Positions 3,297-58,295 of a stretch of DNA of 64,000 nucleotides are shown here, piece by piece. The notes beneath the pieces are model-generated. The model searched no databases. It was given only the letters and a program-made list of their open reading frames with translations, and was not told the DNA's origin. This DNA is from Thermoplasmata archaeon (GTDB lineage: Archaea; Thermoplasmatota; Thermoplasmata; RBG-16-68-12; JAJISG01), in the NCBI GenBank assembly GCA_046758325.1, contig JBHHZZ010000003.1:12381-76380 (forward strand), in the 5' to 3' direction. A program made the translations under genes and the position numbers. The number at the start of each line of letters is the position of its first letter. Positions within the stretch are counted from its first letter, which is position 1.

Positions 3297-3730
3297 ACGT
3301 CCTCGCTTTCCCGCTTGCTCATGTAGTGGATGTCCTCGTGGAGGCGGTATCCGTTGGATTGGAAGAACACGAGGGAGTCCTCGTTCCAGTCCTCCACCAA
3401 GGCGGCAATGATGCGCCTGCCTCGTCTCTGGAGGGCAGATTCCGCTTCTTGAAGAAGCCTGGTCCCGATGCCCCTCCCTCGATAGTCGGGGTCTACGGCC
3501 AGGCGGTTAATCCATCCCTTGCGCCCGTCATCGGTTCCCAGAACAGTGCCAACCAGTTCGCTGTCGATGTAGGCTCCTATCGCGAGGTCCGGATTGCTCC
3601 TCATCTCCTCTCGGAGAGCGGTGGGAAGGTCCCTGCCCTTCGGTCGATGGGGCAGCCTCGCGCTCCGCCACAAGGCGAGAATTCTCTCTGGATTCTCCTT
3701 ACTCAGTGACCGGATCACTACATCTTTCAT
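3293..3730 (-). CDS. GNAT family N-acetyltransferase
   Basis: Acetyl-CoA binding motif (RLAVDPDYRGRGIGTRLLQEAE). Start chosen at MKDVVIRSL on the minus strand (ATG at 3730). Confidence 0.75.
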   Translation of the reverse strand: MKDVVIRSLSKENPERILALWRSARLPHRPKGRDLPTALREEMRSNPDLAIGAYIDSELVGTVLGTDDGRKGWINRLAVDPDYRGRGIGTRLLQEAESALQRRGRRIIAALVEDWNEDSLVFFQSNGYRLHEDIHYMSKRESEDV

Positions 3731-3843
3731 GCTGCTCACCGAGATCTTAAGGGGAACAGTCGTGGGAACAGTGGGGACGCAGCACAAAAAGTCTTGCCCC
3801 TGAGGCTGTTGACGCCCCAGCATATCCCTACCGGAAACTTGCC

Positions 3844-4836
3844 TTGCCAAGTCTGGTCGATAACAGACGATTGATCGACTGGGAAGCATTTTTTAGAGTC
3901 CCCATCTTTGGTGAGGCGGTGAACCGGAAAAAAGCCCTTCTCATGGCTGTCGTCGTCCTTGCTGGCTCAGTAGCGGGGGCAGGGACGTACTTAATCCTCC
4001 AATCGCTCTTCCTAAGGATCGCGCTGCCTTCCTTCCCGGGGGAGCTAGCGCTTTCCTTTCTCCAGCCCGATCCCTACAGTCGCATCATCGTAGAGGTGGA
4101 CTGGGTTTCTGGGCAGGATCCTGACGCGGCTGCCCTCGACACGCTGAAGAATAGGCTGATAACCTACACACATAAGGAGAAGGTTGACATCGTCCTCTCC
4201 GACACCATGGAGGTCGACATCACCCTTTTCAGCCCGAATGACCTCCACAGCGTCGAGACTTCCTACAGAGACTTCGACTCCGGAGGCGACACCCTGGTGT
4301 TATACGTAATGTATCTCCCAGGAAGCCTGGAGGACAGCGACAAGTCTCTGGCTGTGAGCTACCAGGGCGGCTCCTTAGCCGTCTTCAAGGAAGCCGTTGG
4401 GAGGGTGGCCAGGACAACCCGGACCGTGTCCGCGCAGGATGTGGAGACCTCCGCTCTGATACATGAGCTGGGCCATCTCTTCGGACTGGTGAACATCGTT
4501 TACCAGAGTGATCTGGACTACGAGGACCAGGAGCATCCATTCCACAGTACAAACAGGAGCTGCGTCATGTACTGGGCCATAGAGACCGGTCCTTTCCTCA
4601 CGGAGAAGCCACCGACGGATTTTGGGTCGGAGGCAAGCTACGACATCGCTAAGCTCAGGGAGGGAGGATATGAGACTTCCCCCAGTCGGTTGAGAGAGTC
4701 ATCCACGATGGCATCCTTCCTATCCCACGTGGTGGATGTCCGCATGCAGGTCGCCGAAGGGATGAGACCGATATTCTTATGTAGCGCCGGGAATCCTTTA
4801 GAAGGGGATCATGGCAACAGGCTTCGTGCTGATTAG
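3844..4836 (+). CDS. Membrane-anchored HEXXH zinc metalloprotease, archaemetzincin-like but divergent
   Basis: N-terminal TM anchor (LLMAVVVLAGSVAGAG) and an HELGHLFGL zinc-binding motif with a downstream CVMYW. The third metzincin His is replaced (GLVN). The true start may be the internal Met at about 3943. Confidence 0.55.
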   Translation: MPSLVDNRRLIDWEAFFRVPIFGEAVNRKKALLMAVVVLAGSVAGAGTYLILQSLFLRIALPSFPGELALSFLQPDPYSRIIVEVDWVSGQDPDAAALDTLKNRLITYTHKEKVDIVLSDTMEVDITLFSPNDLHSVETSYRDFDSGGDTLVLYVMYLPGSLEDSDKSLAVSYQGGSLAVFKEAVGRVARTTRTVSAQDVETSALIHELGHLFGLVNIVYQSDLDYEDQEHPFHSTNRSCVMYWAIETGPFLTEKPPTDFGSEASYDIAKLREGGYETSPSRLRESSTMASFLSHVVDVRMQVAEGMRPIFLCSAGNPLEGDHGNRLRAD

Positions 4837-36558: not shown

Positions 36559-36873
36559 ATGGCAGAAGAGGCGGAGCCCACGGCAGAGAACAGACTCAGC
36601 GTGGACGACAGGGTCGGCCTCGATAGCTTCGAATTCGATGAGGAGCCCTTCATAACCGTAGAGACCCAGCTATGCCTCGGATGCGAGCTTAAGCCCTGCC
36701 TTTACGTGTGCCCCAGCAAGGTCTACCGTTGGGAACGTGACGGTCTCGTGTACAACACGGAAGGCTGCATCGAGCTAGGGGCCTGTTTCATCGTGTGTCA
36801 TGAGTTGGGCAACAAGGCTATCCACTGGAGCTACCCTCGTGGCAGCAAAGGCGTCCAGTTCAAGTTCGGGTAG
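36559..36873 (+). CDS. fixX: FixX-type ferredoxin-like protein
   Basis: 104 aa with a CLGCELKPCLYVCP ... CIELGACFIVC cysteine pattern, typical of FixX ferredoxin-like proteins. Confidence 0.65.
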   Translation: MAEEAEPTAENRLSVDDRVGLDSFEFDEEPFITVETQLCLGCELKPCLYVCPSKVYRWERDGLVYNTEGCIELGACFIVCHELGNKAIHWSYPRGSKGVQFKFG

Positions 36874-54550: not shown

Positions 54551-55207
54551 CTAGAGGTTGACGAGGACCTCGACAGGTTCCCCGTCACCAAGGCCCAGTT
54601 TGCGGCGAAGCCGATGCTGGGATATGACCTCGAGGACATCATCGTAGTGGGACCGGAACGGCAGGATGACGGCACAGTCCACCTTGGCAATGGAGGCGAA
54701 GAAGCACTTGGCTCCACCGAAGGTCCTCCTGCCGCTGGTAAAGCCCTCTATCCGGATTCCCTCCGCCCCCCTCAGAACGTCGAGTTTCGTGATTTCCCTC
54801 CCGTCCAGCTTGAGGTTGAGGGTTCCCGGGTAAGGCTCGAAGCCCAGTTTGGCCCGGAACTGCTCCCGATACCCCTCCTGGCTCATGTAGTAGAAGCCCT
54901 CTCCAAGTCCCCGGTCTACTCGACCTCTCACCTTCAGCAGCCCCTCCATCTCGAAGATCTTCTGGTAGGCGGCGTACTCGCTCCTGAGGATCTCCATGGC
55001 CTTATCTGTGAGCTTCATCTGCTGCCGCCGAGCCCCGAGGTTTCTCGTGATGAGACCGGCCTCCAAAAGCTCCAACACACGAACAGAGGCCGACTGCTGG
55101 CTGATGCCCATGAGCCTTCCCAACTGGGATGTGGAAACGGGGACATGCTCGTGTATGGCCCCCAGGAGGGCGAGCTGCTTGAGTGTCTCCACCAGGTTCG
55201 GCTTCAA
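54551..55207 (-). CDS. ribK: RbkR-type fusion: N-terminal wHTH plus CTP-dependent archaeal riboflavin kinase
   Basis: N-terminal HTH (STSQLGRLMGISQQSASVRVLELLEAGLI) fused to the MJ0056-family kinase core (PYPGTLNLKL...GAKCF). Confidence 0.7.
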   Translation of the reverse strand: MKPNLVETLKQLALLGAIHEHVPVSTSQLGRLMGISQQSASVRVLELLEAGLITRNLGARRQQMKLTDKAMEILRSEYAAYQKIFEMEGLLKVRGRVDRGLGEGFYYMSQEGYREQFRAKLGFEPYPGTLNLKLDGREITKLDVLRGAEGIRIEGFTSGRRTFGGAKCFFASIAKVDCAVILPFRSHYDDVLEVISQHRLRRKLGLGDGEPVEVLVNL

Positions 55208-55240
55208 CGATGAGGGATAGCCCTGTAAGGTGTAAAACCT

Positions 55241-55618
55241 TTACCCGATGGGGATTCCCTCAGCTTCTAACCTCCTCTTCTCCCTTAGGAATATGACAGG
55301 TCTGCCCGCCTCTCTAAGGCGCCGTCTGAGACGTCGATCATTAGTCAAAACGACGGCCTCCTCCTCCAGGGCTGCCGTCAGAATTGCGTCGTCTCCTGTG
55401 CCCTCGACTTCCATAGTCCGATAGCGGGCCGCTAGCTTCAGGGCGGCTTTGGCCTTCCTGTCGGACCTCGAGAGCCTGGCGAGTTCCTTCAAGGCGGACG
55501 ACGGAATCACGACTTCATACTCCCCAAGGAGCCGCGTGAGTTCGCCTTCCAGGTCGATGGAGAACTGAAAGGGCATCATGAGAGCGTTGGTGTCTAGGAA
55601 TACGAGGACCTTATTCAC
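55241..55618 (-). CDS. PIN-domain protein
   Basis: 125 aa with N-terminal VFLDTNALM and conserved acidic residues (TNDRRL) of PIN nucleases. Confidence 0.65.
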   Translation of the reverse strand: MNKVLVFLDTNALMMPFQFSIDLEGELTRLLGEYEVVIPSSALKELARLSRSDRKAKAALKLAARYRTMEVEGTGDDAILTAALEEEAVVLTNDRRLRRRLREAGRPVIFLREKRRLEAEGIPIG

Positions 55619-55859
55619 ACGGGAAGATAGATCCGCCTACATATGCCTTTATCGAGAATCCCCACATTGATAGCCATTCTCCTCCTCGATAATGATATGA
55701 CAAGTTTTATTACCGATAGTGAGAACATAGGGACCGCAAGCCGTGAGGAGACCAGGGTTAAAGCGGTTGCCTCTCCAGTCCTCCTGTCGGTATCCCTTTT
55801 TGCCCTGGGACTCCTCACCTTGCCCCTTTATGTCTCCTTCGGTCCCCGCGTCAGCTCTT

Positions 55860-55937
55860 GATTATCACCGCAGATAGGCTCGGTGGCGAAAAATCGCGGA
55901 AGATACGGGGAACCTGCGAAAGCTATCGGTGATAATC
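55860..55937. repeat. Perfect 11-bp inverted repeat (GATTATCACCG ... CGGTGATAATC) separated by 56 bp
   Basis: Seen directly at 55860-55870 and 55927-55937, in the AT-rich 410-bp region upstream of surface-protein gene 3. Could be a MITE-like relic, a structured RNA, or a pair of regulator half-sites. Confidence 0.5.
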
Positions 55938-55949
55938 GTGTAATAAGCT

Positions 55950-56001
55950 TTTTATAGTGAGGTATCATAGCGACGCTATGTCCATAGCGTCCTGATGTAG
56001 A
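55950..56001 (+). promoter_or_regulatory. Promoter/operator of surface-protein gene 3: TATA (CTTTTTATAG), then 9-bp perfect inverted repeat GACGCTATG-TC-CATAGCGTC
   Basis: The TATA box at 55950-55957 is about 72 bp upstream of ATG 56029. The palindrome at 55982-56001 sits at the predicted transcription start, with an extra CATAGCG copy at 55976. Confidence 0.45.
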
Positions 56002-56028
56002 AAGGCTCGCTATGCAAAAGGTGAGAAA

Positions 56029-57327
56029 ATGAAGACAGCCGTGAGTGCCCTGTTGGCCCTCCTCCTCTTGGTCTCCCCCCTGGCAGCCTTTGCCGCTGCC
56101 CAGGAGCCCACGGAGATAGAGAGGGACCTGCAGGTCGACGTAAGCGTCGGTTCGACCGACCGCTTGGGCGGCGGCAACTGGGTCAAGATCGAAGTAGGAA
56201 AGACCATCTTTGCCGTCGTCTATGGAACGGAGAATAACCCGAACAACGTGAAGATGTTCGTAGAGTACGACAGGTACCTCGGAGCCGCGGAGATCTACAG
56301 CAATGAGACGGGCGAGTTGCTCGTAACTAGGCCCATCCCAGTGCGGACAATAATGGTCCAGAGCTTCGACCTCCTGGTGGAGTTCAGGGACGGAGACAAC
56401 GACGGCCTTCTCCACTTCCCGAGAGACTGGAGAGACCTCCTCATGGACACCTATGACTACCCCAGGAAAGTCTTGTCTCTCAAGCAGGCTTGGACTCTCG
56501 AGGGATTGGTCATAGATGACTCAGAGGAGAACGTCACGAAGGTCGACTTCAACCTGACTGCTACCAACCTCGGTTACACCGACCTGCGCCCTGAAGATGA
56601 TCCGGGCGATGGTCTAGACAGGATTACCTTGGCCTTCCACGTCAAGGTGGAGCGCGTCCTGAAGACGGGCGAGGTGAACGTCTACAAGGTAGTCGTCGAT
56701 GAGGACAGAGGCATCGTTTCCACGGAGCTCAACAGGACGGAAACACTGACGGGCCTGACCGTGAATGGCAGCTTCAAGTACGACCACTACATCGAAGGCT
56801 GGGACTGGGGCGGTAACGACTCCCGCCTGGCCATGGCAACCCACGTACTAGTCGGAAACCACGTGCCGCCCGAAGTTCTCCAATGGGCTCGACTACAGTT
56901 CGATCCCCACGCTCGGGCTGGTGACGACGAGTACCACGAGGACGCCATGACGGAGAGGCCTCGCCTGATAACCGTGGACAAGATGGAGTTCGAGGACGAG
57001 TGGACCCGCGTCGGTCGACTCCGGTGGGTCTCCGATGTGGAGGTCGACGGAGAGACCATGGAGATGAGCTTCCAGCTGCACGGGATTGAGCGCATCTTGA
57101 GCTTCGAGCACAACTTCGCGGGACTGCGTTTCCGCGGGGCCTTCATCTACCCCAAAGGCGAGAGGATCTTCCACGATCCGTCCCTCGACGCGAGTGTGTT
57201 CGTACCTGTGAGCATCGAATCTCCGCTGGGCCTGGGCCCCTACTTCATTCAGCTGGGGCTTGCGGGCCTTGCAGTGGTCGGACTGGTTCTCTACCGGACC
57301 CTCCGAAAGAAGCCCAACCCCCCCTAG
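56029..57327 (+). CDS. Secreted acidic surface protein, paralog 3 (larger, 432 aa)
   Basis: Signal peptide MKTAVSALLALLLLVSPLAAFAAA, a DGDNDG loop, many N-x-S/T sequons, conserved IYPKGERIFHDPSLD, and a C-terminal TM segment (LGLAGLAVVGLVLY) with basic tail RTLRKKPNPP. Confidence 0.7.
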   Translation: MKTAVSALLALLLLVSPLAAFAAAQEPTEIERDLQVDVSVGSTDRLGGGNWVKIEVGKTIFAVVYGTENNPNNVKMFVEYDRYLGAAEIYSNETGELLVTRPIPVRTIMVQSFDLLVEFRDGDNDGLLHFPRDWRDLLMDTYDYPRKVLSLKQAWTLEGLVIDDSEENVTKVDFNLTATNLGYTDLRPEDDPGDGLDRITLAFHVKVERVLKTGEVNVYKVVVDEDRGIVSTELNRTETLTGLTVNGSFKYDHYIEGWDWGGNDSRLAMATHVLVGNHVPPEVLQWARLQFDPHARAGDDEYHEDAMTERPRLITVDKMEFEDEWTRVGRLRWVSDVEVDGETMEMSFQLHGIERILSFEHNFAGLRFRGAFIYPKGERIFHDPSLDASVFVPVSIESPLGLGPYFIQLGLAGLAVVGLVLYRTLRKKPNPP

Positions 57328-57338
57328 GTCCCCCCTCC

Positions 57339-57385
57339 CCCCCGGGCCGACCTTTCAAATAGGCCCGGGGGTCTTTCCCCCTTTG
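57339..57385 (+). terminator. Stem-loop (CCCCCGGGCC / GGCCCGGGGG, about 14-nt loop) followed by a T/C-rich tract
   Basis: Perfect 9-10 bp GC stem 12 nt after the surface-protein stop codon, followed by TCTTTCCCCCTTT. Confidence 0.45.
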
Positions 57386-57387
57386 TC

Positions 57388-57735
57388 ATGGCGAGGATCG
57401 CCCCAGAGTGGACAGCAGAACTGAAGAAGGGATCCGTGCAGCTTCTCCTCCTTGCGCTGCTAAGGGATTCACCAAAATACGGTTTCCAAATCATAAGGGA
57501 GCTGAGAGATGTGACGGACGGGTTCTTTGACTTGAAAGAAGGCACCCTCTACCCGGCCCTCCGCAGGCTCGAGTCCAAGGGCTACCTGAAAGGTGAGTGG
57601 CACACCGACGAAGAGGGAGGCCCTCGAAAGTATTATCAGATGACAGATTTAGGTCGAAAGGCATTAAAGGAGGCTACAGAAGTGTGGAAGAGGTTAGCAT
57701 GGAGTTGCCAACGCGTATTGGAGAGGAGGAAATGA
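57388..57735 (+). CDS. PadR family transcriptional regulator
   Basis: PadR wHTH signature (LLLLALLRDSPKYGFQIIRELRDVTDGFFDLKEGTLYPALRRLESKGYLKGEW). Confidence 0.85.
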   Translation: MARIAPEWTAELKKGSVQLLLLALLRDSPKYGFQIIRELRDVTDGFFDLKEGTLYPALRRLESKGYLKGEWHTDEEGGPRKYYQMTDLGRKALKEATEVWKRLAWSCQRVLERRK

Positions 57736-58295
57736 ACTCCCTCGATCGCTACCTCAACCAGGTTTCCAGGCACCTGGTGGGGCTCCCTGCGAAACTTCGA
57801 CAGGATGTCCTGATGGAGCTGAAATCCCACATCCTGTCCCAGGCTGAAGTAGAAGAGGGAGAGGTAAACATCGTCGTGGAAAGGATGGGACCCCCCAAGC
57901 AGACTGCCAGGTCCTACATCCAACTCTACGGCTACGGCCTTGGTCTAAAGGTGTTGGCAGTGGTGGCCGCCGCGGCCCTGGCTTTCCTCACGTTGCCCTT
58001 CTCCATAGGTTCTCCGGCAATCCTAGGATCGGTGTGGATGTCTAACGCCAGCCTCATCGTCCTCATACTCTTCCTGATAGGTGTTGGTGTGAAGGTGGGT
58101 CCCAAGGCCGCCCTGGCCGCTGGGACCAGTGTGGCCGCGGCCCGTTTCTTGGCCTTCGGCGTTGCTCTTGTTTTCTCACTCCCAGGCCTGGTGACACAGC
58201 CGGCGGCGATCCTGGCCTTCATCCTGACGACGATAGCCATCGCCTTCGTGGGATACCTCGCGGCTCCACGGCAGAAGGCCTCCGCGGAAGGCTAG
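57699..58295 (+). CDS. PadR-associated membrane protein (HAAS / DUF1700-like sensor)
   Basis: N-terminal soluble helical segment (LDRYLNQVSRHLVGLPAKLRQDVLMELKSHIL) followed by about four TM helices. The start overlaps the PadR gene, the typical arrangement of PadR-HAAS pairs. Confidence 0.55.
   Translation: MELPTRIGEEEMNSLDRYLNQVSRHLVGLPAKLRQDVLMELKSHILSQAEVEEGEVNIVVERMGPPKQTARSYIQLYGYGLGLKVLAVVAAAALAFLTLPFSIGSPAILGSVWMSNASLIVLILFLIGVGVKVGPKAALAAGTSVAAARFLAFGVALVFSLPGLVTQPAAILAFILTTIAIAFVGYLAAPRQKASAEG

Follow-up and report, generated by a model that had tools for sequence, protein, structure and literature searches.

The 410-base-pair (bp) spacer at positions 55619-56028 of a 64,000-nucleotide (nt) stretch of DNA from a Thermoplasmata archaeon (the whole stretch is called the window here) lies between a gene of the PIN_9 family and a gene encoding a surface protein. 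It contains a conserved hairpin, at 55736-55823 on the plus strand, that we describe as a candidate new RNA family. We propose, with moderate confidence, that the spacer consists of two tandem plus-strand units, a small-RNA gene and the ancestral promoter of the surface gene, placed beside the divergent promoter of PIN_9. The original prediction had treated the spacer as a control region packed with symmetric elements; the candidate RNA family, which is the most interesting content of the region, was overlooked there.

The hairpin is recognized by its fold energy, its conservation and a set of strand-specific wobble changes. The segment 55736-55831 folds as one long hairpin with a minimum free energy (MFE) of -44.6 kcal/mol (z-score -6.59; 0 of 200 shuffled sequences as stable), and this structure accounts for 52% of the ensemble. 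The outer helix opens with GCAAG at 55736 and closes with CUUGC at 55819-55823; inside it follow GUGAGGAG/CUCCUCAC, CCAGGG/CCCUGG and an upper stem, and the apical region, UCUCCAGUCCUCCUGUC, bears the C/U-rich motifs CUCC and CCUCC. In an alignment with copies from relatives (the loci fetched from these carry L-numbers, L001 etc.), 97.8% of the paired cells can form a pair, compared with 40-60% when the partner columns are slid. In two loci, L025 and L050, the lower stems are written differently, with register-shifted compensations, and the pairing is kept. Every one-sided stem substitution (U-A to U-G, C-G to U-G, A-U to G-U) leaves a pair solely on the plus strand, and the invariant G-U pair and the commonest U-G pair are also tolerated on that strand alone. 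The strand of the putative RNA, as judged from these changes, is the plus strand.

How does this conservation compare with that of the surrounding genes? When the spacer was compared with the fetched loci by blastn, 55711-55845 was found to be approximately 90% identical in five relatives whose PIN proteins are merely 48-65% identical. The hairpin itself is 91-99% identical to the window copy, versus 64-77% for the PIN, surface-protein and PadR coding sequences of the same loci (the latter figures are for the best blastn segments, and two short PIN fragments of 83-86 nt reach approximately 80%). It is present in 24 fetched loci, which hold 14 distinct sequences, and 65 of the 92 alignment columns are invariant; the further copies were found by a single scan of metagenome contigs for an exact 20-mer and in contigs that encode surface-protein homologues. 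The longest invariant run in the alignment of the 14 distinct hairpins, GGTTGCCTCTCCAGTCCTCCTGTCGGT, is 27 nt long (55765-55791, plus strand), and the wider core at 55763-55801 shows just two single-base variants, C to T in L004 and A to G in L070/L071, the second of which turns a U-A pair into U-G. The upper half of the hairpin, stems included, is thus almost invariant across the clade, while the lower stems drift yet keep pairing. The exact 20-mer CTCTCCAGTCCTCCTGTCGG also turned up in three metagenome contigs that are near-identical to one another (L049, L053, L054). We rejected these as hairpin homologues, the context being unrelated and the covariance model finding no match, and take the occurrence as chance.

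The distribution of the hairpin follows the surface protein. Every locus whose surface protein is at least 53% identical to that of the window carries it, and it is absent from the distant homologues in L007 (36% identical), L055/56 (37%) and L073 (38%). Because the spacers of these RNA-less homologues measure only approximately 100-170 bp, the RNA module of about 240 bp is, on this comparison, a clade-specific addition in front of an older promoter. The hairpin RNA appears specific to one clade of uncultured Thermoplasmata archaea. In L002, an open reading frame (ORF) of 158 amino acids (3429-3905, minus strand), which resembles GNAT acetyltransferases by sequence inspection alone, stands between PIN_9 and the RNA; the RNA is therefore linked to the surface-protein cluster rather than to PIN_9.

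A conserved block of this kind could in principle encode a peptide. An open frame does run through the block in the window (55643-55861) and in L004, and its translation (...AVASPVLLSVSLFALGLLTLPLY...) resembles a hydrophobic membrane helix. However, the frame has no conserved start codon and no Pfam match, the segment before GCAAG varies in length, and L003, L046-48, L050 and L025 have frame-shifting single-base indels within the core or behind it. The 27-nt run shows not one synonymous change among relatives whose neighbouring proteins are 55-76% identical. We regard a small hydrophobic peptide as extremely improbable, and the block does not behave as a small protein-coding gene. The view of the original prediction that the two small ORFs of the spacer (55615-55818 on the minus strand, 55643-55861 on the plus strand) are not genes is borne out for both: neither matches Pfam or has a conserved start, and single-base indels break the frames.

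The hairpin also matches no known RNA family among those searched. Against Rfam 15, the copies in the window, L001, L046 and L058 gave no match at the gathering threshold, and with E-values up to 10 only spurious matches appeared, such as mir-662, which scored 21 bits where the threshold is 88. ARAGORN found no tRNA or tmRNA in the window. Features of H/ACA RNAs are lacking: the hairpin is followed by CCCCUUUAU rather than ACA, its internal loops are 1x2 nt or single bulges, and there are no tandem G-A pairs. Neither of the C/D box motifs (RUGAUGA, CUGA) occurs in 55736-55831, and the hairpin has no K-turn features. A short-query blastn search of the 64 kb with 55736-55831 returned 10-11-mers of chance length alone. 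A viral or mobile origin was considered and rejected, the 20-mer core having no copy in viral contigs, as was a replication-origin box, since the element is single-copy and has no orc1/cdc6 context.

We next turn to the signals around the hairpin, which form the first of the two proposed units (55688-55831). A TATA box, TATA1, with the sequence TTTTATTA (TATAAATA in the L001-L004 subgroup), lies at 55705-55712 on the plus strand. All relatives keep it, always equally far from the hairpin, at approximately -30 relative to 55736; from archaeal promoter geometry, we infer that it is the promoter of the hairpin RNA. A GATAAT element at 55688-55693 (plus strand) stands 17 nt upstream of TATA1, and GATAAY is conserved there in all relatives. 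The repeat search placed TGATAAT at 55930-55936, 19 nt upstream of the TATA box of the surface gene (TATA2), in the same family, so that a related GATAAT sits at approximately -48 of both promoters. The pair may represent a shared upstream protein site, or could be direct-repeat scars of an insertion. Directly after the closing helix comes a conserved tail, CCCCTTTAT (55823-55831, plus strand), a possible weak oligo-T terminator. A further block, CCTTCGGTC (55836-55844, plus strand), begins 13 nt after the hairpin; it is conserved in all relatives, with CTTCG invariant, and is not enclosed by a conserved stem. The four matches from a sigma-70 promoter scan are irrelevant for an archaeon.

The RNA unit was also considered as a duplication of the second promoter with the 5' end of the gene, and this was rejected: local alignment gave p-values of 0.007-0.6 across loci (median approximately 0.17) and 0.05 in the window, where the signal is suggestive only for ATAGTGAG..CATAGsGAC.

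The second unit (55930-56028) would be the promoter of the surface gene and probably also of the PadR and HAAS genes downstream of it. TATA2, TTTTTATA, lies at 55949-55956 on the plus strand, preceded by a purine-rich stretch, and its TTTTATA is invariant in all relatives. It is followed by an operator array, CATAG(55966)-N5-CTATG(55976)-N2-CATAGCG(55983), which covers 55966-55991, approximately -14 to +12 when counted from the predicted start. The 5' untranslated region holds a fourth half-site, CGCTATG, at 56008-56014 (conserved as CGCTAYG), and a Shine-Dalgarno sequence, GGTGAG, at 56020-56025 (plus strand), where GAGGTGA or GGAGG is conserved among relatives. Three nucleotides separate this sequence from the start codon, the ATG at 56029. 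The order in relatives is TTTTATA, 8-10 nt, CATAG-N5-CTATG-N2-CATAG(C/T)G, approximately 17 nt, CGCTAYG, Shine-Dalgarno sequence, ATG. The start predicted from the TATA box falls near 55976-84, on the centre of the dyad, and a dyad on the start site is the classic position of an archaeal repressor site. The arrangement thus has the features of an archaeal promoter with a transcription factor B recognition element (BRE) and TATA box overlapped by a repressor operator, the start site being predicted.

Most of what the original prediction had said of this promoter stands, with corrections of position. The TATA box is present (within CTTTTTATAG at 55948-55957), its 8-mer lying one nucleotide to the left of the proposed 55950-55957. 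The perfect palindrome GACGCTATG-tc-CATAGCGTC exists at 55972-55991, 10 nt to the left of the 55982-56001 given for it, and its centre (55981/82) does coincide with the start predicted from the TATA box. An extra CATAGCG half-site is found as described, at 55966-55972. A short-gap palindrome of at least 9 bp arises in 1.3% of dinucleotide shuffles (n = 300). The suggestion of a tightly regulated promoter is supported by the comparison: a TATA box and a CATAG/CTATG array stand in an equivalent position before every member of the surface-protein family, including the 36-38%-identical homologues.

In the lineages without the RNA, the TATA box and an array are likewise found before the homologue, in L055 (ACATAGCATCACTATGTATATAGCGAC), L073 (ACATAGCGTCGCTATGTaagTAGCGA) and L007 (ACATAGTGACGCTATGTATATAGCG). 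A regular-expression scan of both strands of the 1.1 Mb of fetched loci found the array solely before genes of the surface-protein family, and in L058-L060 a second copy precedes a tandem paralogue (45% identical). The closest relative, L068, has a symmetric variant, CATCG-N5-CGATG. On this evidence, TATA2 with its array is the ancestral promoter and operator of the family. Could the half-sites instead form alternative RNA hairpins (1:2, 2:3, 3:4)? We rejected this possibility. The predicted start leaves half-sites 1 and 2 on its upstream side, and in L045, L050 and L025 the 3:4 pairing is disrupted by mutation. There is no covariation among the bases next to the 5-bp cores, and changes in half-site 4 are not compensated in half-site 3; a protein operator therefore fits better.

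Which protein might bind the array? In the window, L007 and L055, the operator occurs together with PadR and HAAS genes, and in L057 a homologue without adjacent PadR-HAAS genes also has no operator. PadR is the likely repressor because its gene and the HAAS gene are confirmed beside the operator in two of the three RNA-less lineages, the support being one of co-occurrence. HAAS-PadR dyads have been proposed as an alternative two-component system for the transduction of envelope signals (PMC11237479). The present cluster resembles the dyads of that report in that a cell-surface gene is directly followed by the genes for PadR (PF03551) and a membrane HAAS (PF22564), and in having a dyad-symmetric site over the core promoter that travels with the cluster across distant lineages; it differs in being archaeal, with a BRE/TATA promoter, and in that binding by PadR is predicted. 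In the proposed mechanism, the cluster-encoded PadR would bind the CATAG/CTATG half-sites over the start and block the recruitment of RNA polymerase, and it would be released once its membrane partner HAAS senses an envelope signal. In the first unit, TATA1 would direct, from approximately 30 nt upstream, an untranslated RNA of about 88 nt that folds into the hairpin and ends in CCCCUUUAU.

Several points weigh against this two-unit reading. The covariation in the hairpin is not significant (one pair changed on both sides, and scores as high as those observed arise in 60-93 of 500 shuffles); it is statistically weak because almost no positions vary, and the fold therefore rests on its stability and on the retention of pairs. 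The T-run after the hairpin is short, TTT in general and merely TT in L045, L050 and L068, and because of this read-through from TATA1 is possible and a longer transcript might include the RNA. In the alignments, the stretch from TATA1 to the predicted 5' end of the RNA contains a near-invariant block, ACCGATAGTGAGAACAT (55712-55728, plus strand), which holds a copy of ATAGTGAG at 55716 and may be an operator or the sign of an earlier RNA start. Characterised bacterial PadR proteins recognise the dyad ATGT-N8-ACAT, unlike the CATAG-N5-CTATG-N2-CATAG...CTATG found here, with its three to four half-sites. Near-invariance of paired positions would be expected less of a simple antisense RNA than of one that binds a protein or a ligand. 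Pairing of the invariant core with the downstream translation start was tried as a function and given up: relative to shuffled sequences, it reaches z-scores of -1.2 to -4.2 in seven relatives (-1.9 or below in six), but relative to real 50-nt windows it ranks in the top 0.3-9% at best and in mid-rank in the window, L025 and L001-4. As to other targets, comparison of the loop with the starts of neighbouring genes gave nothing specific, and short-query blastn against the window gave 10-11-mers at chance level. Finally, the analysis shows the conservation, fold stability, strand and non-coding status of the hairpin, the synteny and how the operator is distributed; that the hairpin is transcribed, from which strand and between which 5' and 3' ends, that PadR binds the array, and what the RNA does are points we infer.

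The lack of significant covariation, together with the equal invariance of paired and unpaired positions in the upper half, would also be expected if the block acted as DNA, for example as a large protein-binding site, a cruciform or a site of recombination or replication. Yet the one-sided stem changes are G-U or U-G on the plus strand, whereas the opposite strand, or DNA, would have A-C mismatches there. Moreover, the lower-stem sequences vary by subgroup while the pairing is kept, a canonical TATA box stands at the correct distance, the element is single-copy in the window with no Orc1/Cdc6 or integrase context, and the proportion of invariant columns is far above what known operator sites need. 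We therefore consider a DNA-level element quite improbable.

The short T-run has a bearing on the main rival to a separate small RNA, namely that the hairpin is the 5' domain of a long leader of the surface mRNA (55736-56028) and works in cis, be it as a riboswitch-like sensor, as an attenuator or as a stabiliser. The hairpin is oriented like the surface gene, always 200-300 nt upstream of it, and stays with that gene when PIN_9 is separated; the terminator after it is weak (TTT or TT), the first strong T-run being TATA2 itself; its invariant internal positions resemble an aptamer core; and in some relatives there is collinear complementarity to the translation start region. However, the conserved TATA2 (55949-56) with its purine-rich stretch separates the hairpin from the gene and is the sole promoter in the hairpin-less homologues, which is not the arrangement of a riboswitch or cis-acting leader. 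The 100-140 nt from the hairpin to TATA2 are free in length and sequence and have no conserved fold, the complementarity does not exceed the genomic background and is absent in the window, and no Rfam riboswitch matches. A leader domain thus seems unlikely to us, though it deserves to be taken seriously.

Within the two-unit reading, the hairpin would be an independently transcribed regulatory or protein-binding RNA. The role we consider the likeliest is that its exposed C/U-rich apical region (CUCC, CCUCC) pairs with the purine-rich ribosome-binding sites of target mRNAs. Trans-acting small RNAs of archaea, for example sRNA41 and sRNA162 of Methanosarcina mazei, use C/U-rich loops to mask ribosome-binding sites. 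Like these, the hairpin is a short, highly structured intergenic RNA with its own predicted promoter and pyrimidine-rich CUCC/CCUCC apical motifs. In contrast to them, it shows no sequence or Rfam relationship, no target was found in the searches described above, its stems are conserved as well as its loops, which is unusual for a seed-type antisense RNA, and it is confined to one uncultured Thermoplasmata clade. We hold the role of a regulatory small RNA at ribosome-binding sites with low confidence, and a protein- or ligand-binding role is nearly as likely.

It is possible, and we offer it tentatively as against the odds, that the hairpin is the founding member of an undescribed structured class of archaeal RNA, which entered one Thermoplasmata clade as an insertion of about 240 bp between PIN_9 and the ancestral promoter and has hardly changed since, owing to a role alongside the adjacent HAAS-PadR cluster. 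Such an RNA could modulate the surface protein or the regulator by binding a protein or a ligand, rather than as simple antisense RNA.

Between the hairpin and TATA2 lies the inverted-repeat unit (55860-55937) on which the original prediction had concentrated. Its arms, GATTATCACCG at 55860-55870 and CGGTGATAATC at 55927-55937, are separated by 56 nt exactly as described. An inverted repeat of 11 bp occurs in only 0.3% of dinucleotide shuffles (n = 300), so that both this repeat and the 9-bp palindrome at the start site exceed chance. The perfect 11 bp are found in the window alone; among relatives, the spacer varies widely in length and its interior is unrelated. What is conserved is an 8-bp core, GATTATCA / TGATWWTC (TGATAATC), often with one mismatch; the closest relative, L068, matches over these 8 bp only. 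The core GATWATC is itself palindromic.

The unit had been thought a possible insertion resembling a miniature inverted-repeat transposable element (MITE), or else a structured small RNA. It shares with MITEs its small size (78 bp), its perfect 11-bp inverted repeat, unlikely by chance (p approximately 0.003), and its AT-rich intergenic setting; in addition, an 88-nt segment in the window folds with z-scores of -2.1 on the plus strand and -3.7 on the minus strand, and in L046-48 the arms reach approximately 15 bp with different flanking bases. It differs from MITEs in several respects. A search for further copies, as had been suggested, found none of the 78-bp unit within the 64 kb, and the arm occurs in the window only at 55860 and 55927, plus one unrelated match when one mismatch is allowed. 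No target-site duplication is visible, the flanks CTCTT and GTGTA not being duplicated. The unit is syntenic, at the same fixed locus in all relatives, with its interior replaced and variable in length and only 8 bp per arm conserved. Nor does it fold consistently: for the segment from the hairpin to TATA2, z-scores in 12 loci range from -2.1 to +0.7 and are near 0 in 9 of them, and a palindromic core such as GATWATC is expected of a protein site. By these comparisons, the unit is neither a mobile element nor a folded RNA, and the idea that it is one of these is very improbable. A structured non-coding RNA was rightly suspected in the region but in the wrong place, the structured element being at 55736-55823. 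The inverted repeat probably serves as a protein-binding site, or else is left over from the insertion by which the first unit arrived.

The copies of the short motif ATAGTGAG, which had been linked to a dsrE-like promoter, are real but lie at 55716, 55954 and 21960 instead of 55722, 55963 and 21962. Their number, unlike the two repeats above, does not exceed chance (three matches versus 1.14 expected; 12 of 100 shuffles reach three), and the link is lost with it.

The layout of the region is as the original prediction gave it, with the PIN gene running one way and the surface-protein gene the other. The PIN_9 gene (55241-55618, minus strand; Pfam PF18477, E = 3e-28) faces away from the spacer. 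The spacer is indeed AT-rich, with a GC content of 0.49 (0.595 on average in the window), a value to which no other stretch of 410 bp in the 64 kb falls. The AT-richness is nevertheless uneven: the hairpin (55736-55823) has a GC content of 0.59, close to the genome average, between flanks of 0.43 and 0.48. On the right, the surface protein, PadR and HAAS form a cluster (56029-58295, plus strand), identified from translation and Pfam, whose three-gene order is kept in relatives. In these the gene order is RNR, RbkR-type riboflavin kinase and PIN_9 leftward, and RNA, surface protein, PadR and HAAS rightward, followed by NUDIX. PadR is encoded at 57388-57735 (plus strand; PF03551, E = 7e-26), and the HAAS membrane sensor inside an ORF at 57597-58295 (plus strand; PF22564, E = 2e-10). 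The ATG of PadR (57388) has no Shine-Dalgarno sequence, and a TATA-like TTTCAAATAGG lies approximately 30 nt upstream; for these reasons, PadR-HAAS may also be transcribed separately as a leaderless unit.

The surface protein (56029-57327, plus strand; 432 amino acids) has a signal peptide and a C-terminal membrane anchor, judging from its translation. In NCBI, under locus tag ACE5HJ_01790, it is a "hypothetical protein" of a Thermoplasmata metagenome-assembled genome (MAG), and its family comprises just 33 clusters and has no Pfam domain. It had been labelled the third of a set of paralogues; a tblastn search with the protein (E up to 1e-3) found no paralogue in the window. An AlphaFold2 model built with 23 homologues (mean predicted local distance difference test score 78.7) shows an all-beta ectodomain and a C-terminal membrane helix. 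The best matches of the model in the PDB are to the luminal domain of the eukaryotic lysosomal membrane glycoprotein GLMP (8r8q_B, 6nyq_C), with Foldseek E-values of 2e-5 to 5e-5 yet TM-scores of merely 0.31-0.39. In L055 (298-2865) and L056, from a lower-GC lineage, the 37%-identical homologue with PadR and HAAS directly follows a gene for a YHS-domain protein of 54 amino acids, and the cluster also adjoins a divergent HMA/E1-E2 (copper-type) P-type ATPase. These neighbours hint at a metal or envelope-stress context for the surface-gene family.

On the left, all relatives of the PIN protein found in contigs of a one-genome-per-species set come from uncultured Thermoplasmata or related MAGs and are at most 65% identical. 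A VapB antitoxin before the PIN gene was considered and rejected: the ORF of 67 amino acids at 55615-55818 (minus strand) matches no family, and the PIN protein is of the PIN_9/Fcf1-like type. Beyond it, co-directional with PIN_9 and adjoining it in all relatives, is a gene (54551-55207, minus strand) in which a MarR-type winged helix is fused to a CTP-dependent riboflavin kinase (PF01982 + MarR), the architecture of the RbkR regulator/kinase (PMC5397151). In Thermoplasmata, the operator of RbkR is a TTAC-N10-GTAA palindrome upstream of rbkR or rib genes (PMC5397151). With an RbkR-type gene in the divergent PIN_9 operon, an autoregulatory site in the spacer could be expected; however, the palindrome is not found in 55200-56100 even when one mismatch is allowed, and its one match in the window is at 36702.

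To our knowledge, very few regulatory RNAs are known from uncultured Thermoplasmata, and none has been linked to a HAAS-PadR dyad, which has hardly been studied in archaea. If the hairpin were merely part of a leader, the result would be an ordinary one, and the promoter with its operator is already an ordinary kind of system. As a family, the hairpin RNA is by the comparisons made here new, and its kind cannot yet be named; it is a candidate with defined boundaries, a ready covariance model (R1) and a conservation far above that of the neighbouring genes. The comparatively defined operator, CATAG-N5-CTATG-N2-CATAG, makes the hypothesis of PadR-HAAS control directly testable. The insertion of the RNA module next to a promoter can moreover be placed in time, for sister lineages keep an ancestral spacer of 100-170 bp without the RNA.

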